A stretch of 64,000 bases of DNA from Gammaproteobacteria bacterium (lineage in GTDB: Bacteria > Pseudomonadota > Gammaproteobacteria > SZUA-152): contig JAKIUF010000005.1 in assembly GCA_021647705.1 (NCBI GenBank), positions 43,936 through 107,935 on the forward strand, given 5' to 3'. Each line of letters begins with the position of its first letter. The first letter of the stretch is position 1. Positions 10,721 through 46,997 of this stretch are shown in pieces. The position numbers and the translations under genes are program-made. The notes below the pieces were generated by a model. It did no database searches. It had not been told where the DNA came from and was given only the letters and a program-made list of their open reading frames with translations.

Positions 10721-10905
10721 CCTGATGCATATACCCGTAGCGATTGAGATTTAGGTCGTGTGCACGCCCTATTTGCTCCATGGCTGCGTTGTTGTCCTTG
10801 CAATAGAGTGACTATTACGCGTCATTTCGCCTTGCCATGAAACAAATATGACGCACACTTAAACCTAACTCCCAAACGCTACGGGTATATATGAATATGA
10901 TCAGG
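10721..10905. repeat. 185-bp MITE-like element with ~36-40 bp imperfect terminal inverted repeats
   Basis: Left end CCTGATGCATATACCCGTAGCGATTGAGATTTAGGT. Right end (reverse complement) CCTGATCATATTCATATATACCCGTAGCGTTTGGGAGTTAGGT. No ORF inside. Confidence 0.4.
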
Positions 10906-35354: not shown

Positions 35355-36554
35355 GTGAGCAAAACCCTCCCTCCCCTGCGTCTCAAAAAAAATGAAGAAC
35401 GTCGCCTCAAGGCAGGCCATTTATGGGTCTACAGCAACGAAATCGATATCGACAAAACGCCACTGAAAGATTTCTCCCCCGGCACAGCCGTCAGCATCGA
35501 AGATTCGCAGGGTCATGTGCTAGGCAATGCCTACGTCAATCCGCATTCACTGATCAGCGCACGGCTGATTAGTCGTGATACAAAATATGTACTGGACCAA
35601 TCACTGATAACCCACCGCCTGAACATTGCTCTCTCACTGCGCGAACAATGTTTCGCACAACCCTTTTATCGCCTGGTACACGGTGAAGGGGACAACCTGC
35701 CCGGACTGATAGTGGACCGCTTCGCGGACGTACTGGTGGTGCAAATCACCACTGCAGGCATGGAAATGCAAAAACAGGCCATCATCGCCGCGCTGGAAAA
35801 AACCCTCAAACCTGCGGCCATCGTATTGCGCAACGACAGCCCCTCCCGCAAAGCCGAAGAACTGGATAGCTACGTCGAAACCGCCAGCGGCAAGTTACCG
35901 GAATCAGTGCTACTGGAAGAAAACAACACCCGTTTTGAAATCGATGTACTCAGCGGTCAAAAAACCGGCTGGTTTTACGACCATCGCATGAACCGTGCGC
36001 GCATGCAGCATTACGTCAAAGACAAGCGGGTACTGGATGTCTTCAGCTACATCGGCGGCTGGGGGATTCAGGCGCTCACCGCCGGGGCCAACGAAGTGAT
36101 GTGTATTGATGCTTCAGCCAAAGCCGTTGATCGCATGCATCACAATGCCTGCCTGAACAACGTAGAAGATAAACTGGTGAGCGTAGAAGGCGACGCCTTC
36201 GAAGCACTAAAATCCCTGCGCCAGGAACGCGAACGTTTTGACGTAGTGATTATCGACCCACCCGCCTTCATCAAACGCAAAAAAGATTTCAAAGAAGGCC
36301 TCACCGCCTATCGACGCATTAATCAAATGGCCTTGCAGGTACTCAACAAAGGCGGCTATCTGATCAGCGCCTCCTGCTCGTTTCATCTCACACGCGCGCA
36401 ACTGCACGACACCATTTTAAAAGCCAGTCGTCATATTGATCGCAATGCGCAAATTATCGAGCAAGGTCACCAGGGGCCAGATCATCCGGTACACCCAGCC
36501 ATTGCGGAAACCGATTATTTAAAGGCATTTATCACCCGCATTTTGTCGAATTAA
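35355..36554 (+). CDS. rlmI: 23S rRNA m5C1962 methyltransferase (PUA plus class-I SAM MTase)
   Basis: MSKTLPPLRLKKNEERRLKAGHLWVYSNEID... matches the RlmI N-terminus. SAM-binding motif region present. GTG start. Confidence 0.85.
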   Translation: MSKTLPPLRLKKNEERRLKAGHLWVYSNEIDIDKTPLKDFSPGTAVSIEDSQGHVLGNAYVNPHSLISARLISRDTKYVLDQSLITHRLNIALSLREQCFAQPFYRLVHGEGDNLPGLIVDRFADVLVVQITTAGMEMQKQAIIAALEKTLKPAAIVLRNDSPSRKAEELDSYVETASGKLPESVLLEENNTRFEIDVLSGQKTGWFYDHRMNRARMQHYVKDKRVLDVFSYIGGWGIQALTAGANEVMCIDASAKAVDRMHHNACLNNVEDKLVSVEGDAFEALKSLRQERERFDVVIIDPPAFIKRKKDFKEGLTAYRRINQMALQVLNKGGYLISASCSFHLTRAQLHDTILKASRHIDRNAQIIEQGHQGPDHPVHPAIAETDYLKAFITRILSN

Positions 36555-36574
36555 TGAATTAAGTATTGCACCCT

Positions 36575-36960
36575 CTTGTGCATCACACTGTTGATCTGGA
36601 TATGATCCTTCCGATGCGTATGCCAAAAAACGCAATAAAGCAGAACGGTTCACCGGCATCTTCTTTGCCCATAGGAAGATGACAAGCTTATCGAAACTGA
36701 GTTAAGGCTCCTTCGGGAGCCTTTGTCATTCATAACGCTCTTAAAAACATAGCGCTATCCCCGTCAGCCAACAAGCCAAGTCGGGTAGGGTGGAACAAGC
36801 GTAGCGGTTCCACCAAACAGGATAAGGGACATATTCAAGGTTCGATTGCTATCGACGTCCACCTTGACTCACCGTTTGCTGGTGAGTTGTTGTTGAATAA
36901 GAGATTTTTTCTCCGACTTCAGGCAATCGGAGTTTTGTTGCAGAGTGTTGATTTTTTGTC
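36575..36960. repeat. Copy 1 of a ~300-390 bp structured repeat (UUCG-tetraloop hairpin GGCTCC-TTCG-GGAGCC, REP unit, two hairpins followed by T-runs)
   Basis: About 90% identical to 38320-38890, with a ~150-bp indel between the copies. Ends with CTCCGA-CTTCAGGCAA-TCGGAG-TTTTGTTG. Confidence 0.6.
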
Positions 36961-37029
36961 AGCGGTCGTAAGCTATAGAGGTGATTTGTTGTTCCGTAAT
37001 CGCCTGTTGGTGGAACCGCTGCGCTTGTT
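36783..37029. repeat. Inverted pair of REP-like units GTAGGGTGGAACAAGCGTAGCGGTTCCACC (36783-36815 forward, 36996-37028 reverse) flanking ~180 bp
   Basis: The two 30-bp units are reverse complements of each other with 1 mismatch. Each is itself a GGTGGAAC/GTTCCACC hairpin. A third forward copy lies at 38719-38751. Confidence 0.6.
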
Positions 37030-37524
37030 CCACCCTACGGGTTTACTCTGTGCTGAATAGAGAAAATCAAAAGGGATCAAGTATCATATTGACGATTTAT
37101 TTTAACCGCTAATTTAATGGAATTAATCTCATCCTTCATACGCAACTTCCACTTTGAATAGTTTAAGCATTTCTGAAGAAATAATTTTCTACCAACTAAC
37201 CGCTAATATGATACTTGACCTTCATTTTTTTATCACCCGCATTTTGTCGAACTAACGAATTAAGCAAAATCATCAAGTTAAAAATAGGTTGGCGGTGAGT
37301 TTGCGAACCCCAACGCTACCTCAGCATGCAGTTTAAGAGGCACTGGGAATTAGGTCGCATTTTCAATAAAATAAATTTTATGGGAATAGATAACATTCAT
37401 ATCTTTATCCTGTTTTTATAAAAAAGTGGCTTGCCCCTTGTGCCAAAAACAATCTATAAAACGGATGAATTAAGTATTGCGCTCTCTTATTTTGATAGAA
37501 AAATGGCTCATATGGTCAGCCGTT

Positions 37525-37926
37525 TTATATATTGAATAGCTGTATTGGGGTGTATTTTTTATAATGAGAAAAATCCTTATCCGTCGTGAATATTTCTGAT
37601 TTCAGTCGAAACGCAACCGCACAAATCAAAAAATCAACATGTGAACCTTGAACACCTTTTGACCGACAGGTATTCGAAAATGTTGCTGCCTGAACATAGT
37701 CACCGTCAATGATTTGCTCATTTTCAAAATAGCGTAATTTGCTATTTAATTTCTCAAACTTAGATTTGACGCTATAGCCCGACAAAACCTCCTGCCTGAT
37801 TGGACCAAGCATTACCACCCTTTGGTCTGAAATCAGGGTTTCAAGCTCCTTAACACAAGCCTCATATCCTTTTTTTTTGGATCTTAAAGCGTATGACCAT
37901 ATTGGCGTATCTACGATGACCTTCAA
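37525..37926 (-). CDS. vapC: PIN-domain toxin (VapC family)
   Basis: MKVIVDTPIW... with conserved acidic residues of the PIN fold. 133 aa. 4-bp overlap with the upstream antitoxin gene. Confidence 0.7.
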   Translation of the reverse strand: MKVIVDTPIWSYALRSKKKGYEACVKELETLISDQRVVMLGPIRQEVLSGYSVKSKFEKLNSKLRYFENEQIIDGDYVQAATFSNTCRSKGVQGSHVDFLICAVAFRLKSEIFTTDKDFSHYKKYTPIQLFNI

Positions 37927-38120
37927 TGCGCTCTGCCCTTTTTATAATCGTAATCAGCATCAGGATCCAGCTTCCCAAACAACTCTATAATTTCCAATTG
38001 CTTACGACGATTCACAAACTCTTTTAAAGCATAATTAACCGTATCTTTTTTAGTTTTTAACCCGCTGAGCAATAGAGCTTCTTCCAATAATTTGTCGTCA
38101 ATTGCTAAATTCGTTGCCAT
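37923..38120 (-). CDS. vapB: VapB-type antitoxin (small DNA-binding protein)
   Basis: 65-aa MATNLAIDDKLLEEALLLSGLKTKKDTVNYALKEFV... translationally coupled to the PIN gene. Confidence 0.5.
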   Translation of the reverse strand: MATNLAIDDKLLEEALLLSGLKTKKDTVNYALKEFVNRRKQLEIIELFGKLDPDADYDYKKGRAH

Positions 38121-38319
38121 TTTGCATCTCCTTTTTCTCACACAATAGGCGACACATAGCAGTGTGTCAACAACGAATCCTCACAGGGTACCGGTAAAAA
38201 ACCCAGGTACGGCTAACGCCATACTCAGTGCCCGCCCTGAAGGCGCATGCTTCCAATAATCTCCCGCTCAACAATGTTAATTTGAAGAACATCTGCGCCC
38301 GTGAGCAGCTTAAATCGGC

Positions 38320-38890
38320 GTTTCCTGAGCCACTTATACAACACACTGTTGATCTAGATATGGTCATTCCGATGCGTATACCAAAAAATGCAATAAAGCA
38401 GAATGGTTCATTGGCATCTTCTTTGCCCATAGGAAATTGACCATCCTCGGTTACCCAAATACTGCATCCTGGTGCTAAAAAAATGTACGGATAACCCCTC
38501 TCACGGGACATTAATCCGCTAGAAAAAACCGGTAACGGCATACGCCCCAGTCTTGCAATCAAGCAGAAATGTATTCAACAGTGAACAGTGCAGTCAGCCC
38601 GGCAAAGCGGTGACAAGCTTCTCGAAGCTGAGTTAAGGCTCCTTCGGGAGCCTTTGTCATTCATAACGCTCTTAAAAACATAGCGCTCCCCCCCCTCCGT
38701 CAGCCATCAAGACAAGTCGGGTAGGGTGGAACAAGCGTAGCGGTTCCACCAAACGGGATAAGAGACATATTCACGGTTCGATTGCTATCTACGTCCACCT
38801 TGACTCGCCGTTTGCTCGTGAGCTGTTGTTGAATAAGGGCTTTTTTCTCCGGCTTCAGGCAACCGGGGTTTTGTTCACTGCAACATAGAC
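38320..38890. repeat. Copy 2 of the ~300-390 bp structured repeat (carries an extra ~150-bp internal segment)
   Basis: Shares CACACTGTTGATCT...GCAATAAAGCAGAA... and ...CTGAGTTAAGGCTCCTTCGGGAGCCTTTGTCATTCATAACGCTCTTAAAAACATAGCGCT...GTCGGGTAGGGTGGAACAAGCGTAGCGGTTCCACC... with copy 1. Confidence 0.6.
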
Positions 38891-38945
38891 CATACACTGG
38901 CAGACAAAGAGATTGACAACTGATTAAGGCGGTAAACAAAAGAAA

Positions 38946-39057
38946 AATAGGGGTCAAGTTTATTGTATAAAATCAAAAAATATTTTCGTACTCAATTTTT
39001 GCTGGGAAGGGTATGGGTAGCTAATGTCATTATACAATAGGCTTGACCCCTTCACTC
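38946..39057. repeat. 110-bp TIR element copy 1 (MITE-like; ends AATAGGGGTCAAG...CTTGACCCC)
   Basis: Near-identical to 40661-40770 and 42629-42757. Terminal inverted repeats GGGGTCAAGTTTATTGTATA / TATACAATAGGCTTGACCCC. Confidence 0.6.
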
Positions 39058-39233
39058 TTACGAGACTAAATCACTTCAACTTTCGTTTACGGCCTGCTGC
39101 CTTGCGGCACGTCGTGCTTAACATTTAGGATTACTCCCGCCTGCCCGACGCTTGCTACCCGGTGGCTGACCTGCCTTGCCGGGGCGGGTTTCTCACCCGC
39201 TGGAATAATCGACCTGGCTCGGCCGCACACCCC

Positions 39234-39725
39234 TTAACTTTTTTTGTTGTCTGAAAAATTCTCATTTCTAATAATTTGTTTTAACTTCAGATAATACCCA
39301 TTTGAGGTCTCTACCCAAACGCCGTCCCATTCACCGCCTTTGTTTGTCCATCGACTAGCAAGGAAAAATTCAACAGAATGACCGACATCTACACCCTTGT
39401 TTTTTAAGTCTGCACGCAAACTTAAAAATGCATCTTGTGATTTTATCGTCATGATTTTTTCAGGTTTATTAGTAAACTCGCTTTTTGTATAAATTATTCG
39501 CCAAATAAATATGCTACTGACTCCCCTGTCAGCCTCTTCACGATACAACAACTTAGCATCTGCTGGAAATTCCAGGCCGCTTATTTTTTCTATATGCTCA
39601 ACCGGTTCAGACAATACCTGATCCGGTACTTCTAATAGGCGCGAAACAGAAAAAACACCCAGTACAAAGAGAAAACTCAGTACTATCACGAATAGTAGGA
39701 TCAGCTTTTTCACATTACCTACCAC
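39234..39725 (-). CDS. Hypothetical membrane-anchored protein (163 aa) in the integron cassette region
   Basis: N-terminal TM helix LILLFVIVLSFLFVLGVF. 11-bp overlap with the upstream ORF 39715-40398. Confidence 0.5.
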   Translation of the reverse strand: MVGNVKKLILLFVIVLSFLFVLGVFSVSRLLEVPDQVLSEPVEHIEKISGLEFPADAKLLYREEADRGVSSIFIWRIIYTKSEFTNKPEKIMTIKSQDAFLSLRADLKNKGVDVGHSVEFFLASRWTNKGGEWDGVWVETSNGYYLKLKQIIRNENFSDNKKS

Positions 39726-40398
39726 TGGATATGGGCTCCATTTTGGATAAAACGGTTTTATCGCCCCATTTATGCTGACTTTTAATTTGACCGCACAAAT
39801 TAAATTCTTGAGCTAAACCTTGTCGATGGAACAACCCCATGAATTCGTCGGTAATGTCTACATTGAAAATTGTTACCGACTTGCCTTTATCCCAATTGTA
39901 TCTATCGACACAATTGAAAACGAAATCCATTTGATATCCTTTACCGCCCACACCGTCATGTTCCACAATAAGGTTCGCTTTCCCCCATATTGAATATCCA
40001 CCAACCGCAAAAAACCAGTTTTTACTTTCAATTTGTCTGTTATACTCTTGCACCATTCGAGAAGCTACGATATTGTATGCTCCGGGCGGCAAAGTCTCAG
40101 CGAAAACCTTTGCTTCAGCTGCTTCCCTAGTATGTAGCAATTTAGCACTTTCCACTTCATCAACCATCCCCTGTAAATCAAACTCGTACTCTTTTCCCGA
40201 ATTCAATAAGTAGTGTAGCATGTGCTTGGCGGCATCATCACCAACTAGAACAGTTGCATGCACCATATAATTCAATATTGCGACTTTTAACGCGATCATT
40301 TTAGCTTCAGGTTTCTCACTATTCCAGAGTCCTGCGCCGGGATCATATTTTACGACTGGGTCAGTCGTTCCAATTATAAAATTTGGCATCACTCTCAT
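39715..40398 (-). CDS. Hypothetical protein (227 aa) in the integron cassette region
   Basis: Uninterrupted ORF, minus strand like all cassette ORFs. No recognisable motif. Confidence 0.5.
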   Translation of the reverse strand: MRVMPNFIIGTTDPVVKYDPGAGLWNSEKPEAKMIALKVAILNYMVHATVLVGDDAAKHMLHYLLNSGKEYEFDLQGMVDEVESAKLLHTREAAEAKVFAETLPPGAYNIVASRMVQEYNRQIESKNWFFAVGGYSIWGKANLIVEHDGVGGKGYQMDFVFNCVDRYNWDKGKSVTIFNVDITDEFMGLFHRQGLAQEFNLCGQIKSQHKWGDKTVLSKMEPISSGR

Positions 40399-40660
40399 CC
40401 CTTAATTTTTTCAATCTAAATTTCCTCCACCCTATAATGACAAAATCATACTGTCAAACGAACGAAAGGCTTGTACTGTGCTTTGTTTTAACACTGATGA
40501 AAGAAGGAGAGACCTTTCGATTTCTGCTCAGCTCAATCAGTGCCACTCTGCAAATTGTCCGCGTTAATCACTTTTGTTAGCCTTTTATTGGCACCCACAA
40601 CAATTTCGCTCCAATATGCTTATGGATTAAAACAGATAGTAATCTATGTTTATAAAATAG

Positions 40661-40770
40661 AATAGGGGTCAAGTTTATTGTATAATATCAAAAAATATTT
40701 TCGTACTCAATTTTTGTTGGGAAGGGTATGGGTAGCTAATGTCATTATACAATAGGCTTGACCCTTTTAC
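40661..40770. repeat. 110-bp TIR element copy 2
   Basis: 97% identical to copies 1 and 3. Abuts the truncated 3' end of the IS91 N-terminal fragment. Confidence 0.6.
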
Positions 40771-41046
40771 TTTCAGGTCATTGAGCGCCAAGGGTATTGT
40801 GAAGATGGCGTGGTGATGTGGGCAGTCCAGCAATACCCTTTGGGTGTTAATCAGCCATTCTTCGGTTGGCATGCCTCGACATTGGGGGCAGGCGCAGTGT
40901 TTACAGGAGTTGTACCAGATGCCGTTGAGGTGGTTGTTTTCACAGTATTGCGCATGTCCGCCCAGGGCGGCGGTACGACAGGTGGAGAGTTTGTCCAGGG
41001 CTTTCAGATGATGTAGCGGTAAGCTGACTTTTTGTCCGCTTGTCAT
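40675..41046 (-). mobile_element. IS91-family transposase, N-terminal zinc-binding fragment (pseudogene; reading frame runs into the 110-bp element)
   Basis: LGGHAQYCENNHLNGIWYNSCKHCACPQCRG...HHHAIFTIP matches the N-terminal Zn-binding and first conserved block of IS91/Y2 transposases. No HUH/Tyr catalytic region follows. Confidence 0.6.
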
Positions 41047-41103
41047 GTGCTACCAAAGCACAAACGAAACGTTGCGGAGGCCTGTCCGGCTCTACTGCGC
41101 CTG

Positions 41104-41781
41104 TTATGCATTGGCTTTTATACGTGACAACATTGAAATGTATGGGTTTGCTCTGATAGTTATCAATTTTTTAAACGTAGCTTCAATACTTTTATCATTC
41201 TCAGGCATTCGTTTTAAAAGACTAGAATTGCTACCCTCATAATACTGAAAAATAGAAATGTATGTTTCATACCACATTACCCACTCAGCCTCTTTGGGAA
41301 CCCACCCAACTAAGTCCAAATATTCTTTTTGCAGATGTAAAGATTCTTCACTCACACCATGCGCCTTAAAAGGGTATATATACAAGAATCTAATAAACTC
41401 ATCCAGCAACGCACCAGCCCATGTCGTAATCTCTAGATCGCTAACTGCCTTTTCTACTCTTTTGTCTAGAATATCTTTTTGATAATGGTAAACAGCATTC
41501 CTACAGCGCTTTATTGTTAGAACATAGTCTTCATATACTGATAGAAGCTCATTTATTGCTTTATCTGACTCTTTTAGGCTATACCAGCCTTCTACAACAA
41601 CGTACAAAGATGCCAACCATTGACTACTGTATATAAAATATTTTACCCCACTTTCTTCGTTTTTAATTTTTCGCTCAAAATTATGGCGTTCAATATCAGA
41701 ACGATAAATGTATTTACCCCACGAAGCCACCTCAAGTATTTTTTCTGGCATAGGTATCTTCCAATGCATAACGATAGCCAT
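41104..41781 (-). CDS. Hypothetical cassette protein (225 aa)
   Basis: Long minus-strand ORF. Its stop overlaps a GTTATGC core-like motif at 41100-41106. Confidence 0.5.
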   Translation of the reverse strand: MAIVMHWKIPMPEKILEVASWGKYIYRSDIERHNFERKIKNEESGVKYFIYSSQWLASLYVVVEGWYSLKESDKAINELLSVYEDYVLTIKRCRNAVYHYQKDILDKRVEKAVSDLEITTWAGALLDEFIRFLYIYPFKAHGVSEESLHLQKEYLDLVGWVPKEAEWVMWYETYISIFQYYEGSNSSLLKRMPENDKSIEATFKKLITIRANPYISMLSRIKANA

Positions 41782-41832
41782 AAGCCGCGCGGCTTTTTTG
41801 CGTCGGCTTGATGGCCTGGTTATGCCAGAAAT

Positions 41833-42297
41833 TCAAAATAGTTGCCCAACTATATAATGCCAACTCATCAGGCTCGCAATAACAATTAATGCTGGAGCAT
41901 GAGGTATTAGTACAGGTGCCAAAAACATGTTAGATAATATTTCTTTGTACCATGACTGAGAAGAGGAAAATACCTCAAACCAACTTGTATAAGCTTGTAA
42001 TGGAAATATTTCTTCTGATTCTCCTCTGAAGTATTCCTCAATTGCAGATATCCTTGGTCCTGAGCAATACTGAAAGAATTTCCACAACGCCTCCATGACC
42101 CAGAGAAAAAGTGCGGCGAGGCCCGCTAGCACCATAATTGACATTGACTTTGATTGAAATGCCAAGCCGATACCGCCAAGCGCGACAGTTATAGACCACC
42201 CCTTAATAAGCAACGCTCTTCTATCAAAATCTTCATAAGCATTTTGCAGTAACAGATACTCATCCTTAAGAAGATTATCTAAGTGCTCTTTTTCCAT
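41833..42297 (-). CDS. Hypothetical membrane protein (154 aa) cassette
   Basis: Two or three predicted TM helices. Its ATG is preceded (minus strand) by GTTATGACCAATTAGGAATCTATGA, i.e. a core-like GTTATGA next to an attI-like sequence. Confidence 0.5.
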   Translation of the reverse strand: MEKEHLDNLLKDEYLLLQNAYEDFDRRALLIKGWSITVALGGIGLAFQSKSMSIMVLAGLAALFLWVMEALWKFFQYCSGPRISAIEEYFRGESEEIFPLQAYTSWFEVFSSSQSWYKEILSNMFLAPVLIPHAPALIVIASLMSWHYIVGQLF

Positions 42298-42490
42298 TCA
42301 TAGATTCCTAATTGGTCATAACTTATTAGTATTAGGCATATTTGCCCGGTTATCCGGCAGTATTACACGAAGAATCAGGCACATTTGCCTGCTAATCACT
42401 GAAAACCGGTCAACTTGCCCTGATATGTTGATATTGGGGTGGTATTTAGGCATATTTACCCGCTATTTTTCTCAAACTCTATGCTTCGGA
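42298..42490. other. Second, degenerate attI-like region (duplicate of 44659-44739 with a ~100-bp insertion)
   Basis: AACTTATTAGTATTAGGCATATTTGCCCG at 42322 and GGTATTTAGGCATATTTACCCGCTATTTTTCTCAAACTCTATGCTTCGGAAATCACC at 42440 match the sequence immediately upstream of intI at 44676-44739. Confidence 0.55.
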
Positions 42491-42491
42491 A

Positions 42492-42628
42492 ATCACCATG
42501 TCAACTCAGAATTCTGGAAAAGATTTATTGACAGAAATGCGCGATTTAATGCGACGGTTGCATTATTCCATCCATACTGAACGCGCTTATTGCGACTGGG
42601 TTGCGCGCTTTATTCGTTTTCATCAGAG
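42492..42628 (+). pseudogene. Integron integrase 5' fragment (first ~43 codons of an intI paralogue), truncated by the 110-bp element
   Basis: [43 protein letters not shown] is 95% identical to the N-terminus of the intact intI at 44740. The frame then runs into the repeat. Confidence 0.7.
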
Positions 42629-42757
42629 AATAGGGGTCAAGTTTATTGTACAATATCAAAAAATATTTTCGTACTCAATTTTTGTTGGGAAGGGTATGGG
42701 TAGCTAATGTCATTATACAATAGGCTTGCCCCCTTCACTCAGCCCCCTTCACTCAAG
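42629..42757. repeat. 110-bp TIR element copy 3 (with a 12-bp tandem duplication CCCCCTTCACTC at its right end)
   Basis: Near-identical to copies 1 and 2. Lies between the intI fragment and the IS91 C-terminal fragment. Confidence 0.6.
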
Positions 42758-43207
42758 CACTATCCGGAAAAATGGGTCGTTGATTGTAAATCGGTCGGTT
42801 CCGGTGAACAGGCGCTGATTTATCTGGGGCGTTATCTCTACCGGGGTGTTATTCGGGAGAAGGATATTGTGAGCTGTGAAAATCGGAAGGTGACTTTTCG
42901 TTACCAAAACAGCAAGACAAAGCAGTGGGATTTCAAAACGGTTTCGGGCGAACAATTCTTGTGGCTGATTCTCCAACACGTACTCCCGAGACGCTTTCGA
43001 CGCACACGCAATTTTGGTTTCCTGCATCCCAACAGTAAACGGTTGATTCAGGTGATTCAGCTTTTGTTTGGGCTCGATATAAACCGGACTCTGGCATGGA
43101 TGAAAGAAAGACCCAAAATGATTTGTCGGTGTTGTGGTGGAAAGATGACGATCATCAAAACCCGGCTTTCTCCCATCCGTCTGCTGGCGGCTTTGGTTCC
43201 AACTTGA
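42758..43207 (+). mobile_element. IS91-family transposase, C-terminal fragment (pseudogene)
   Basis: EKWVVDCKSVGSGEQALIYLGRYLYRGVIREKDIV...CRCCGGKMTIIKT matches the C-terminal conserved block and terminal Cys cluster of IS91-family transposases. The N-terminal two-thirds are missing. Confidence 0.6.
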
Positions 43208-43540
43208 TGATGGAGAATAATGACCCGTTATGTAACCTCACCTCATAAAGCAGAAAAAATTTCAGTGGTACGTGCTGAGGGGTGAACTTGCCTGCGATTA
43301 GGGAAAAACTGACAACTATCCTTCTGATACAAGAAAAAATTGCCGCAATGGTAATATAAGGGCTTAAGTTCAAGGCTTGCGGAATATTATTCGCCTCGAA
43401 TGGCAGCGAACTCAAAAAGCTATCTTCATGGTCAATCTATACTCCAGCCACCGGGCTTGTCCAACAAACCGGTTCAGATCGCGGTTCGTTCCTCACGCGA
43501 TCTAACCTAATTCGTTATGTTGATTTTGTTTTAAACATAT

Positions 43541-43990
43541 TTAATTTAGATACCTAATACCTACGATAAATGCTGCTAGTGAACCAAGCTGAATTACACA
43601 ATAATTGATCATGAATTCTACTCGATGCTCCTCTCTTTGCATTAACCTACAAAACGGCCCAAGAAAATACCCTGTCGATTTCATTTGGTAAGCACTAAAC
43701 GATGCCAAAGCAGACAGCATGAACCAAAATATTGCACCACCAAAATCACCTACATCGTCTGCAACAATTATGTAGAAGATGGAGATTACAATAAGTCCGT
43801 AAACTGGTCTCATTAATTTTTTGTTAATTGTTTTTTCTAAATTATTTTTCCTGACATATTCACGCTGCTGATTATCGCTTACTTCCAATATTGAGTTATA
43901 TTTTTCTAACGCAATACCGCAATTGGCACACTGCCAATCTGGAACAGCATTTTTTTCGTTTTTAATATACTTGCACTTAGGGCATTTCAT
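43541..43990 (-). CDS. Integron cassette 2: membrane protein with N-terminal zinc-ribbon (CPKC...CANC), 149 aa
   Basis: MKCPKCKYIKNEKNAVPDWQCANCG, then 2-3 TM helices. Its ATG lies ~33 nt downstream (minus strand) of the attC1 crossover site. Confidence 0.55.
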   Translation of the reverse strand: MKCPKCKYIKNEKNAVPDWQCANCGIALEKYNSILEVSDNQQREYVRKNNLEKTINKKLMRPVYGLIVISIFYIIVADDVGDFGGAIFWFMLSALASFSAYQMKSTGYFLGPFCRLMQREEHRVEFMINYCVIQLGSLAAFIVGIRYLN

Positions 43991-44019
43991 AATTAACTAT
44001 TACCGATCTACAATTTTTT

Positions 44020-44136
44020 ACATAACGCCAACATCAGCGGTTGCTGAAAGCGACGGTTTTTTGTGTGACAATGAGCGACAGCGAATAACACAAAAAAACG
44101 GCGCTTTTGGCGATCCGCTGGATGTTCTGGTTAGGC
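44020..44136 (-). other. attC site of cassette 1 (117 bp)
   Basis: On the minus strand: R'' GCCTAAC overlaps the stop of ORF 44140-44658; the site ends in R' GTTATGT. Imperfect internal palindrome (CCGCTGGATGTTCTGG... / ...CCAACATCAGCGG) with extrahelical bases. Confidence 0.6.
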
Positions 44137-44139
44137 GAT

Positions 44140-44658
44140 TTACGTATATTCCGCAGGCGGCAGATCACCGCACACCATTGCTGGTTTAAAAATAAACTTT
44201 GTCTCATATCGTTTTTTTCCAAAAATTCTTCTGTGTAGCGAGAACAACCAATTGAGCATTGATTTAGGTGCATTGTATTTAGCGGTAATCTGAAATGAAT
44301 CAGATTTAATACCTAAAGACTTCCCTCCACCATCAGGATATTCGTTTAAATTCTGTTCATCGAACCTAAAAAGGTGGATCATCTGTCCAGGTGCCATTTG
44401 AGGTATTACTGTTTCCATAATTTCTCCAAGGCTTTCCCTTGGCTTATTTCTTTTTAATCCTCCAGATACTTCTAACTCGATATCCTCAGCTCTAACACTT
44501 CCAATATTTACAATACTAAATTGAATGAAAATATCTTGTTCAGGGCTGAATCTATTTCTTAACTCATAATATATTTCAAGAACAGGTTTATTGTGATTGG
44601 ATATTATTTGTAATCCAACTCTCATCATTCCGGCGACAGTTGATCCTGCGACTTCCAT
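44140..44658 (-). CDS. Integron cassette 1: hypothetical protein (172 aa)
   Basis: ATG is 14 nt downstream (minus strand) of the attI core GTTAGGC. No recognisable domain. Confidence 0.55.
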   Translation of the reverse strand: MEVAGSTVAGMMRVGLQIISNHNKPVLEIYYELRNRFSPEQDIFIQFSIVNIGSVRAEDIELEVSGGLKRNKPRESLGEIMETVIPQMAPGQMIHLFRFDEQNLNEYPDGGGKSLGIKSDSFQITAKYNAPKSMLNWLFSLHRRIFGKKRYETKFIFKPAMVCGDLPPAEYT

Positions 44659-44739
44659 ATTTTTTATCCTCGCCTAACTTATTAGTATTAGGCATATTTA
44701 CCCGCTATTTTTCTCAAACTCTATGCTTCGGAAATCACC
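44659..44739. other. attI recombination site of the integron (core GTTAGGC on the minus strand at 44672-44678)
   Basis: Lies between intI and the first cassette. Contains the TATTAGGCATATTTACCCG repeat, also present twice in the degenerate copy at 42298-42490. Confidence 0.55.
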
Positions 44740-45720
44740 ATGTCAACTCAGAATTCTGGAAAAGATTTATTGACAGAAATGCGCGATTTGATGCGGCGTT
44801 TGCATTATTCCATCCATACTGAACGCGCTTATTGCGACTGGGCTGCGCGTTTTGTTCGTTTTCATCAGATGAAGGCGCGGGATGCACTTTTTGTGGATGC
44901 AGAAAAAAATGTGGAGGATTTTTTGACGCATTTGGCGGTACAGGAGGCTGTAGCGGCTTCGACGCAGAACCAGGCTTTCAATGCGTTGGTCTTCCTGTAT
45001 AAGCGGGTACTGCTACAACCTCTGGAAAATGTGTCGGCAACCCGTTCGCGTAGAGAACCACGAATTCCGGTGGTGTTGACGCGAGAGGAGGTGAAGCAGG
45101 TATTGACTTTGCTGGAAGGAACAGCGGAGTTGGTGGTAAAGCTGTTGTACGGTTGTGGTTTACGGATTACCGAGGCGGTGCGTTTGCGGGTGCAGGATAT
45201 CGATTATGGGTACAAGCAGGTCACTGTGCGTAATGGTAAGGGTAATAAGGATCGAGTGACACCGTTCCCCGCCATTCTGGAGTCTCTGCTAAAGAATCAT
45301 CTGGAGCGGGTGATGGCCGTTCATGAGCGGGATCTTGAGGATGGGTTTGGCGCGGTTTATTTGCCTTATGCTCTGGCTCGCAAGTATCCAAATGCGGAGA
45401 AGGAGTGGAATTGGCAGTATGTTTTTCCCAGCAGGAAGTTGTCGGAAGACCCTCGGAGTGGGATGACGCGTCGGCATCATGTGGATCAGTCGGTGGTGAA
45501 TAAGGCCATTCGGCAGGCGGTGCGCACAGCGGAAATCACGAAAAAAGTGAGTGCGCATACCTTTCGTCACAGCTTTGCGACCCATTTGCTGCAACGGGGC
45601 ACAGATATTCGCACTATTCAATCGCTGTTGGGGCATCGGGATGTGCAGACAACCATGATTTATACTCATGTATTAAAGCAGGGTGGAGAGGGTGTGGTCA
45701 GTCCTTTGGAGGATTTGTAA
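44740..45720 (+). CDS. intI: Integron integrase (tyrosine recombinase, IntI family)
   Basis: N-terminal [22 protein letters not shown]. IntI-specific additional domain [21 protein letters not shown]...[11 protein letters not shown]. Catalytic box [12 protein letters not shown]...[16 protein letters not shown]. Divergent from a minus-strand cassette array. Confidence 0.9.
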
Positions 45721-45785: not shown

Positions 45786-46997
45786 CTATTGCACCAACTG
45801 ATTCAAGTCAAAGATCGGTAATAAAATAGCCAGAACAATCACCAGTACAATAGCACCCATACTCAAAATCAGCAGCGGTTCAAACAACCCCATCAGCCCG
45901 GAAATCAGTGTTTCCATTTCCCGCTCCTGACCACCCGCTGCACGTTCCAGCATATCTTCAAGGTTGCCACTGGCTTCACCACTGGCAATGAGATGCACGG
46001 TCATGGGTGGAAAATAACCGCAAGACTCCAGCGCCAAATGGATGCCCGAGCCTTCGCGCACGCGCCTGGCCGCAGCATCCACCGCTTCGCGCATGGGCAG
46101 GTTGTTCATTACCTGTGCGGAAATCCGCATACCATCCAGTACGGGCACTCCACTGGCTACCAGAATACTAAACGTACGGGCAAAACGTGCAGTTTCCAAA
46201 CCCTTCACCAAGCGCCCAATCAATGGCATAACTAACAATAGCTGGTGAAAACGGAAACGCACGGCATGCGATTTCAATGAGTATGCAAAAGCCACTCCTG
46301 CAATCAATAGAACGAAAAAAATACCTGCACCATAGTTTTGCACAAACTCGCTGCTGGCAATCAGCCCTCGGGTCAGTGCGGGCAATTCCTGGCCGATGTT
46401 TTCAAACACTTGCACTACTTGCGGCACTACATACGCTAGCAGCAAAATGACTACTGCAATTGCCACTAAGGTCAACAGGGCGGGATAGATCAGCGCCAGC
46501 ATCATTTTCTGTGAGAGTTGCTGACGTGATTCAGTGTAATCTGCCAAGCGCTCCAATACGATTTCCATATGCCCTGACTGTTCGCCCGCCGCTACCGTGG
46601 AACGAAACAGGTCCGAGAATACATGGGGAAAATCAGCCAGCGCGTCGGCCAGGGCATGGCCTTCCAAAACCCGTGAGCGTACCGCTGCCATCATGCTTTT
46701 GAGGCGGGGTTTTTCGGTTTGCTTGGAAACCGTTGCGAGGGTTTCATCAATGGGCATGCCGGAGCGCACCAGGGTCGCCCATTGGCGGGTAATCAGTGCA
46801 AGGTCGGTGGAGCTAATGCCGCGCTGAAACAGGGAGCGTTTACTGCGGGCTTCACGCTGTTGCACGACTTCAACGGATAAAGGTGTTAACCCTTGCTCTC
46901 GCAGCTGCTGGCGAATTTGCCGTGCGGCATCGCCTTCCAGCACACCGCTTTTTTCGCGGCCACGTTCATCCAGTGCGGTGTATTCAAATGCGCCCAT
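45786..46997 (-). CDS. gspF: Type II secretion system inner-membrane platform protein
   Basis: MGAFEYTALDERGREKSGVLEGDAARQIRQQLREQGLTPLSV is the typical GspF N-terminus. 403 aa, 3 TM. Confidence 0.85.
   Translation of the reverse strand: MGAFEYTALDERGREKSGVLEGDAARQIRQQLREQGLTPLSVEVVQQREARSKRSLFQRGISSTDLALITRQWATLVRSGMPIDETLATVSKQTEKPRLKSMMAAVRSRVLEGHALADALADFPHVFSDLFRSTVAAGEQSGHMEIVLERLADYTESRQQLSQKMMLALIYPALLTLVAIAVVILLLAYVVPQVVQVFENIGQELPALTRGLIASSEFVQNYGAGIFFVLLIAGVAFAYSLKSHAVRFRFHQLLLVMPLIGRLVKGLETARFARTFSILVASGVPVLDGMRISAQVMNNLPMREAVDAAARRVREGSGIHLALESCGYFPPMTVHLIASGEASGNLEDMLERAAGGQEREMETLISGLMGLFEPLLILSMGAIVLVIVLAILLPIFDLNQLVQ

Follow-up and report, generated by a model that had tools for sequence, protein, structure and literature searches.

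We show that a stretch of 64,000 nt from a Gammaproteobacteria bacterium (contig JAKIUF010000005.1, positions 43,936–107,935; hereafter the window) holds two integron platforms of one family in head-to-tail arrangement, each with a genuine G^TT junction followed by two gene cassettes. The right unit is an integron with an intact integrase gene (intI). The left unit retains the 5′ end of such a gene (intI′), which stops at a miniature inverted-repeat transposable element (MITE). The overall structure is a real and fairly ordinary rearrangement scar with one twist: the truncated copy keeps the complete ancestral recombination site (attI′), and the working copy does not. On balance, we favor a history in which two platforms of the same family were fused by a MITE-associated deletion, the second platform not being a recent copy of the resident one. 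An earlier note on this DNA had proposed two tandem integrons, the intact one with two cassettes, and the anatomy, with two attI/intI-5′ platforms in direct orientation, bears this out.

A repeat search revealed that the platforms share a direct repeat of 182 nt with 97% identity (42446–42627 and 44688–44869). Its copies lie ∼2.2 kb apart and span 52 nt upstream of the start codon and intI codons 1–43; the note had placed this repeat of attI-proximal sequence and ∼43 intI codons at 42440–42628 with ∼95% identity, which is confirmed within narrow limits. The six mismatches are at 42548, 42554, 42557, 42601, 42608 and 42612 of the left copy, and no difference was found in the first 101 nt (42447–42547 vs. 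44689–44789). A second repeat of 30 nt with one mismatch (42319–42348 and 44675–44704) is the attI-cassette junction. The 17-nt motif TTAGGCATATTTRCCCG was found at 42332, 42446 and 44688, with a degenerate copy at 42375, where chance would give ∼0.3 matches. Two of the three sites listed earlier for this motif (42445 and 44688) hold, the former as 42446, but the third, 42322, is ∼10 nt away from the real site at 42332. The left copy of the 182-nt repeat (plus strand) holds motif 3, the 5′ untranslated region with a Pc-like promoter, and codons 1–43 of intI′.

The right unit runs from intI through a shortened attI, cassette c1, attC1 and cassette c2. Its intI (44740–45720, plus strand) encodes a 326-aa integron-type tyrosine recombinase, which scored 447 bits with TIGR02249 (cutoff 265) over the full length (1–315) and in which the IntI-specific insertion segment and the R/K/HxxR/H/Y residues are readable. 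With the IntI1 equivalog NF011946 it scored 302.5, below the cutoff of 435, and it does not belong to class 1. The right unit thus has what a complete integron has: an IntI with the specific insertion, an attI with a G^TTRRRY junction, and cassettes ended by attC sites. The left unit runs from the full-length attI′ through c3, attC3 and c4 to IS-alpha, an insertion sequence (IS) fragment. As expected of a platform remnant, its attI is homologous to those of this integrase family and its cassette junction is genuine; it has no functional integrase, only codons 1–43 being left. The intI′ remnant (42498–42628, plus strand) has V35 and I38 where intact intI has A35 and V38. Its open reading frame (ORF; 42498–42707) comprises the 43 IntI codons with these two substitutions, matching positions 1–35 of Phage_int_SAM_4, and then enters the MITE; the intact gene continues from codon 44 as ATGAAGGCGCGG....

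The right junction reads ...ACTAATAAG^TTAGGC at 44678/44677 beside c1, and the left one ...ACTAATAAG^TTATGA (AATAAG^TTATGA) beside c3, seen on the plus strand as tcataac at 42316–42322. The latter is the core-like GTTATGA that had been remarked on next to ORF 41833–42297. All four cassette ORFs are on the minus strand: c1 (44140–44658, 172 aa) and c2 (43541–43990, 149 aa) are the first and second cassettes of the intact integron, and c3 (41833–42297, 154 aa) and c4 (41104–41781, 225 aa, no family match) are those of the left platform. A scan for RYYYAAC...GTTRRRY hairpins detected three sites. Two of them, on the minus strand, are attC1 of c1 (44020–44136, 117 nt, GCCTAAC...GTTATGT, ΔG −31 kcal/mol) and attC3 of c3 (41766–41825, 60 nt, GCATAAC...GTTATGC, ΔG −18 kcal/mol, with paired AAC/GTT ends). 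The third, attCx (43459–43520, plus strand, GTCCAAC...GTTATGT), is the attC-like end of an IS element termed IS-beta and is inverted relative to the array. In the canonical attC top strand, as in attC-aadA7, the extra base is in 2L. On the minus strand, it is the 5′ arm (L″) of attC1 and of attC3 that has the extra base, and both sites are therefore in normal array orientation.

The true start of c4 is likely the ATG within the R′ box of attC3, and the c4 protein also adjoins c3 in loci L089–L093. The attC of c4 itself begins as GCATAAC (41108–41102) and is then severed by the IS-alpha fragment. The hairpin scan gave no convincing attC to the left of 41100, and the further frozen cassettes that had been proposed were not recovered. 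The cassettes of the two platforms are unrelated; Pfam families had no match in c1–c6, and PADLOC gave weak matches only, with c2 and c3.

The two attI sites differ in architecture. attI′ (42322–42497) is 176 nt long with its crossover at G42322^TT, and the shortened attI of the intact integron (44678–44739) is 62 nt long with its crossover at G44678^TT. Three direct copies of a YAGGCA-N4-6-TGCC motif are present in attI′, at 42332, 42375 and 42446. Relatives with sequence upstream of intI all share a ∼180-nt attI architecture (L094, 93% aa identity; L103/L104 and L105/L106, 94–95%; L020, L006, L008, L014 and others), made of the junction AACTTATTAGTAT(T/C)AGGCA, three direct YAGGCA-N4-6-TGCC copies and a conserved TTGCCCTGATATnTTGATATT block; the junction is conserved in L094, L020, L103 and L106. 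attI′ aligned over its whole length with the attI of L020, L094, L103, L106 and L006, and attI′ plus the intI 5′ end was 82–90% identical to L020, L094 and L103 over ∼180–310 nt (82% over 179 nt with L020, 90% over 308 nt with L094). The attI of the intact integron is without 114 nt (the equivalent of 42332–42445), including motif 2 and a TTGATA box, and its motif is a hybrid, with the left flank of motif 1 and the right flank of motif 3. The hybrid motif and the 114-nt gap suggest that the right attI suffered a deletion between two direct copies of the 17-nt motif. The same short form was found in Logan contig L002. Judged against the relatives, the truncated copy carries the common attI architecture and the attI of the intact copy is a deleted form. 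The platform had been called decayed; as to attI the reverse was found, since attI′ is complete, as in all relatives, and the “intact” integron lost 114 nt.

A Pc-like promoter (TTGACA-17-TAGAGT) is present on the cassette (minus) strand at 42504→42476 and 44746→44718, that is, within the 182-nt repeat and so in both units. Its −35 hexamer overlaps the intI start codon, and both hexamers are conserved in relatives. A Pint-like promoter (TTGATA-17-CATATT, plus strand, 42428–42456), with a spacing conserved in relatives, points into intI in the left copy only. By these matches, a minimal attI is left beside the live integrase gene, whose candidate −35 box (TTGATA) is gone, and the dead one keeps both the box and the full-length site. 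No LexA-box-like CTGT-N8-ACAG was seen by eye in either attI.

The divergence of the repeat bears on its age. The 182-nt repeat was split at the first mismatch into a 101-nt and an 80-nt part, and both were compared with L094, L103, L105 and L020. The window copies show 0 differences in the 101-nt part, where each differs from those four alleles at 8–15 sites. In the 80-nt part (codons 18–43), the window copies differ at six sites, which equals the distance to the alleles of other lineages (5–7 sites; Fisher p = 0.007), so that the copies are as diverged from each other as are the IntI alleles of other lineages. When polarized with outgroups, four changes fall on the left copy (three synonymous and V38I) and two on the right copy (V35A and one synonymous). 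Intact alleles with V35/I38 exist (proteins P0243 and P0245), and at the nucleotide level they are not the donor. The contrast between 0 differences in 101 nt and 6 in 80 nt points to a mosaic of old divergence and recent gene conversion, not to a fresh copy. In the simplest reading, the platforms would have diverged long ago or in different lineages, and a later conversion tract would have covered the sequence from motif 3 to ∼nt 50 of intI. The earlier view that the array grew by a recent platform duplication does not agree with a final 80 nt at between-lineage divergence next to an identical first 101 nt.

Two IS91-family fragments flank the left unit. The IS-beta 3′ remnant (42740–43514, plus strand, 775 bp) comprises transposase residues ∼213–364 (42740–43207), a 3′ untranslated region and the attC-like hairpin, and ends at G43514 of GTTATGT. 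IS-alpha (40771–41046, minus strand) encodes the N-terminus (92 codons) of another transposase of the IS91 family, 57 nt beyond c4. The C-terminal fragment corresponds to positions 216–355 of the 356 of NF033538 and the N-terminal one to positions 16–111, and Pfam Y2_Tnp and Zn_Tnp_IS91 were matched across the two, which places both in the IS91 family. The note had spoken of IS91 remnants; the two are unrelated: the C-terminal fragment is 94% identical in aa to residues 215–364 of P0002 (and 89% in nt to the intact element of L085), and the N-terminal fragment is 25% identical to the N-terminus of P0002. A single IS91 element split by an inversion between MITE copies was considered and rejected, as the two fragments both adjoin the right end of a MITE, an outcome that homologous recombination cannot give, and the elements are unrelated.

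The position of the IS-beta remnant shows to which array it belongs. The first 6 nt of c2 (TTATGT) match an R″ box ACATAAC, and the attC of c2 is interrupted. After IS-beta the sequence continues with TTATGT (the last 6 nt of attCx), which is complementary to the ACATAA^C of the R″ box that c2 should have. IS-beta had thus inserted in the attC of c2, and its remnant belongs to the right array.

MITE copy 3 (42629–42739, core 42633–42733, plus strand, ∼111 bp, terminal inverted repeat (TIR) GGGGTCAAGtttATTGTAtAAT) joins codon 43 of intI′ to residue ∼213 of the IS-beta transposase; the run of the frame into a ∼110-bp TIR element and then into an IS91-family C-terminus (from 42740) had been described correctly. 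The repeat search gave two more copies in the same orientation, copy 1 at 38946–39056 and copy 2 at 40659–40771, the latter with its right end joined to IS-alpha. The element is short (∼111 bp) and non-coding, has TIRs of 22–28 nt and is present in three direct copies in the window, as expected of a MITE. A fourth copy (L098:1162–1271, 95% identity), inverted, follows a Phd/RelE-type toxin-antitoxin pair, and a metagenome scan detected the MITE in four contigs only, all in one metagenome. No target-site duplication was found at any of the four copies, which is consistent with recombination or deletion after insertion, or with a family that makes no such duplication. To the right of every window copy lies a truncated mobile element (for copies 1–3, a 5′ fragment of a group II intron, IS-alpha and IS-beta), which in each case lacks the part that would border the MITE. 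The intron fragment (39081–39202, minus strand, probably from GTGCG at ∼39228) scored 54 bits with RF02003, where the gathering score is 49. It starts ∼5 nt after the stop codon of ORF 39234–39725 and is severed by MITE copy 1.

Since the sequence to the right of MITE copy 3 belongs to the right array, this copy is best taken, on the sequence of its two sides, as a deletion joint between the two arrays and not as a simple insertion. That the left integrase was cut by a mobile element thus stands in part: the gene is cut after codon 43 at the small TIR element, but a simple insertion does not account for a deletion joint with no target-site duplication, and the IS91 C-terminal fragment did not cut intI.

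The relatives show how such platforms normally occur. The closest relatives of the intact IntI (74–95% aa identity) are from uncultured Gammaproteobacteria (Chromatiales, Methylococcaceae, Achromatium, Thioploca, Marithrix) and hydrothermal-vent metagenomes. All relatives checked (80 genome loci and the closest alleles P0122, P0243 and P0245) have a single platform with a long attI and different flanks, and gspF and the methyltransferase gene that flank the window integron, as well as c1–c6, are absent from every one of them. The integrons of the relatives occupy different genomic contexts, with homology ending at the intI stop codon, which shows that units of this integron family do move. Recombination within the region is seen in a second metagenome haplotype, VAPF01020443.1 (L096), which equals window 37843–40429 bar one single-nucleotide polymorphism (SNP) and is then ∼12% diverged to its end (compared to 40556). 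Its point of divergence marks a recombination breakpoint just upstream of ORF 39715–40398, and by this comparison the island that holds the integron is demonstrably mosaic in the population.

We propose that a diverged second integron was brought next to the first, or that the duplication is old. Arrival could have been by inter-strain recombination in the mosaic island or by insertion of a second unit. Gene conversion would afterwards have homogenized the first 101 nt of the repeat. Separately, the right attI would have lost 114 nt between two direct copies of the 17-nt motif. IS-beta (2.4 kb) interrupted the attC of c2 at its R″ box. The final deletion would have taken out all that lay between codon 43 of intI′ and residue ∼213 of the IS-beta transposase, including the remainder of intI′, the DNA between the platforms, the cassettes at the far end of the right array and the 5′-most 1.65 kb of IS-beta. 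It might have occurred by recombination between two MITE copies or as an adjacent deletion from the right end of the MITE.

The history proposed earlier, in which the resident attI and intI 5′ end were duplicated in situ and one copy was then destroyed by a mobile-element insertion that left its cassettes frozen, we regard as rather unlikely. It would account for direct repeats 2.2 kb apart and for an identical 101-nt part whose derived states are common to both copies and occur in no other allele. It does not account for between-lineage divergence in the last 80 nt, or for platforms with differing attI architectures and unrelated cassettes. To the right of the MITE, moreover, there is an element in the attC of the other array, not the remainder of intI, and no target-site duplication; the cassettes, finally, are in principle not frozen, attI′ and attC3 being intact.

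IS91/ISCR elements mobilize DNA beside their terIS (5′) end. A one-ended rolling-circle transposition of IS-beta, with transposase supplied in trans, might by this route have carried the MITE, the intI′ 5′ end, attI′, c3 and c4 from a donor integron into the attC of c2. The intI′/attI′/c3/c4 block does lie on the 5′ side of IS-beta, intact IS-beta copies are present in the same metagenome, and the right junction is the standard IS-beta junction. We consider this route improbable all the same, because all intact IS-beta copies have precise ends on both sides and flanks that can be rejoined, as in site-specific insertion, because no left boundary of a transposed block was identified, and because the remnant is without the transposase N-terminus and the recombinase.

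Several points weigh against the fusion of two platforms as we reconstruct it. The parental structure was not recovered: no MITE in an otherwise complete intI′ was found, and no intact second intI at this locus was found in the metagenome-assembled genome (MAG), metagenome and Logan contigs, the 80 genome loci or the closest alleles. The gene conversion is deduced from six substitutions, and the same picture results from an old in situ duplication whose copies diverged and were then partly converted. The promoters are consensus matches whose regional number is no higher than in shuffled sequences, and it is their conservation that speaks for them. The assemblies all appear to be short-read ones, and the order across the exact 101-nt repeat is resolved by MAG-type contigs only. 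Contig VAPF01068494.1, from the metagenome of another project, begins and ends with the same 101 nt, which is the de Bruijn output for a tandem or a circle alike.

A check of the duplication against other assemblies supports it. MAG contig JAKITR010000009.1 (110 kb) is 99.995% identical to the window over 20.5 kb, with the whole tandem in the same order. The only difference is G/A at 45080, which gives T114M in IntI; the relatives all have T. The exact IntI of the window is also recorded on a second NCBI MAG contig of 162 kb. In the other project's metagenome, VAPF01068494.1 equals 42447–44789 exactly and VAPF01048071.1 equals 40435–42486 exactly. Among the Logan contigs (SRR32233990–93), some have 44688 as their first base, others end after 30 nt of the repeat, and others extend from c1 across the short attI to intI. 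The junctions of variant intI′ with the MITE and IS-beta and of c1 with the short attI and intact intI occur in separate contigs, and the six variant bases show that two distinct copies really exist. An assembly artefact, or a population mixture in which a single real platform is accompanied by a 2242-bp unit that is a circle or belongs to another strain, is thus very unlikely: the repeat-bounded VAPF01068494.1 and the break of Logan contigs at the repeat edge would fit it, but two contigs agree in order with one SNP in 20.5 kb, the exact IntI lies on a different contig, both junctions and two different copies exist, and a 2.2-kb circle with half an IS and 43 integrase codons makes no obvious biological sense.

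The left cassettes had been described as frozen. This need not be so: the left unit still has an intact attI′, attC3 and Pc-like promoter, a gene for the cognate IntI lies 2.2 kb from it, and only c4 has lost its attC, to the IS. The arrangement suggests that (i) one IntI would now serve two attI sites, each with its own Pc-like promoter; (ii) IntI could act in trans, c3 being excisable, new cassettes being able to enter attI′ and only c4 being fixed; and (iii) c1 and c3 would both be in promoter-proximal position. Accessory binding sites in attI1 raise recombination efficiency, and by analogy attI′ is probably a better insertion site than the 62-nt attI. More modestly, the integron may be one with two attI sites in which cassettes are captured and expressed mainly at the truncated platform, the neighboring IntI acting in trans.

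IS-beta deserves separate description. Intact relatives are exact units of 2418–2444 bp, from TTGGACGAAGCC to CTAACCTTATTCG, in five loci (L085:201–2644, L099:4–2421, L100:1638–4055, L101:113–2530 and L102:544–2974), of which L085 comes from the same metagenome as the VAPF contigs. Each encodes an Xer-like tyrosine recombinase and an IS91 transposase and has, ∼250 nt on, an attC-like hairpin. The recombinase is 33% identical to IntI over 128 aa, scores below all NCBIfam cutoffs and is without the IntI-specific insertion. The unit starts with TTGGAC, and the R″ box of the hairpin, GTCCAAC, is complementary to those first six bases; the hairpin bulges at a C of its 5′ arm, and a comparison of six copies shows two compensatory base-pair changes. 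In structure, the units of L085 and L099–L102 are those of gene cassettes (TTRRRY start, complementary R″, bulged L″ base). In insertion they are not: a cassette enters in array orientation at R′ of attC or at attI, and IS-beta sits at R″ and is inverted.

G^TT is the exact point at which the window ceases to be homologous to L085, L086 and others. When joined, the flanks of IS-beta in L085 and L102 give a complete resident attC (ΔG −26 kcal/mol in L102), and the insertion point is RYYYAA^C of the R″ box of that attC. In the window, L030, L028 and L102, the bulge shows IS-beta to be inverted relative to the neighboring attC sites and to share the strand of intI. We considered attCx as the attC of c2 itself and rejected this, for the same hairpin trails the IS91 gene elsewhere, with homology ending exactly at G^TT, and the bulge puts the top strand opposite.

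A tentative reading, which we hold to be possible but short of probable, is that IS-beta units may mobilize themselves into integrons, their attC-like strand recombining with the “wrong” strand of a resident attC through their own recombinase or a hijacked IntI, and that the HUH transposase might supply the single-stranded circle. As part of this reading, the IS91 remnant of the window could be the tail of an uncharacterized kind of mobile unit, built as a gene cassette and entering arrays backwards. The Xer-like recombinase may serve as an alternative to IntI as the catalyst. A conserved A8 run was observed in the IS-beta recombinase gene (L085:1028, L086:789, L099:809 and L102:1349). The ORF stops after ∼246 aa, and the catalytic C-terminus (HxLRH...LGH...Y) resumes in the −1 frame right after the run in all four relatives examined. 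The run looks like a site of programmed frameshifting or transcriptional slippage. The transposases of the two of these relatives with a figure on record are 72–94% identical to the window fragment.

Truncated integrases, MITEs at integron borders, IS91-type elements between repeated segments and attC-targeting elements are already known. Class 1 integrons with an IS-truncated intI1 (e.g., by IS26 on clinical plasmids), common in the literature, likewise have an integrase cut near its 5′ end by a mobile element, with attI, Pc and cassettes retained and presumably still expressed. Unlike these, the window has a second, intact cognate intI with its attI 2.2 kb away on the same strand, the integron is chromosomal and not of class 1, and the truncating joint is a MITE-associated deletion. 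A literature search on duplicated or second attI sites and tandem integrons returned truncated-intI1 structures only. Complex class 1 integrons (In6/In7, with ISCR1) also have an IS91-family element between two copies of a backbone segment and two cassette regions in series, and ISCR1 is thought to act by rolling-circle capture. In In6/In7, however, the 3′ conserved segment (3′-CS) is duplicated, whereas here the attI/intI-5′ platform is repeated and the IS91-type element, itself truncated, is carried as a passenger by one array. As in the MITE-flanked class 1 integrons of Acinetobacter and in integron mobilization units, transposase-less TIR elements mediate rearrangement at integron boundaries; in contrast to those elements (288–439 bp), the present one is a different MITE of ∼111 bp, which marks deletion joints inside the array and does not flank a mobilized integron.

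IS-beta resembles attC-targeting elements (the IS1111-attC group, group IIC-attC introns and ISShvi3) in that it sits in attC sites of cassette arrays, and the island also holds the 5′ fragment of a group II intron. ISShvi3, which is IS91-like, was reportedly seen beside an attC in a Shewanella integron. What sets IS-beta apart from these elements is that it is inserted backwards, at precisely the RYYYAA^C crossover of R″, that it brings an attC-like hairpin with an R″ complementary to the first six bases of the element, and that it encodes an Xer-like recombinase besides the HUH transposase.

The general picture of integrons is unchanged by these findings. The locus is a natural case in which a single integrase gene neighbors two cognate attI sites that each have a cassette promoter. 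With a complete attI on the dead platform and a minimal one on the live platform, the pair could show the role of accessory attI repeats and of the conserved promoter box in a non-class-1 integron. Sedentary integron arrays can apparently grow and reshuffle by MITE- and IS-driven fusion of whole platforms, besides cassette capture. The recombinase/IS91 unit with its attC-like end, placed backwards at R″, recurs in several unrelated integrons; it is the most novel element and may merit a study of its own.

The integron lies in a low-GC island (∼36,555–45,720) between an rlmI-like RNA methyltransferase gene (35355–36554, plus strand) on the left and the type II secretion gene gspF (45786–46997, minus strand) on the right, and is chromosomal. 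intI sits at the right edge of the island, and the cassettes run leftwards on the minus strand. A vapBC pair is present in the left part of the island (37525–38141). The last ∼26 nt of the rlmI-like gene and the bases downstream (36528–36577) recur 701 and 911 nt on (37229–37264 and 37465–37488), and a ∼370-nt block (36572–36939 vs. 38330–38875) is repeated 1.8–1.9 kb away with 88–95% identity; these repeats at the left edge look like nested insertions. Far from the integron, a 117-nt stretch with no Rfam match (10730–10846) is 95% identical to L020:1412–1528, which is directly downstream of intI in another MAG, and it may be another small repeat element.

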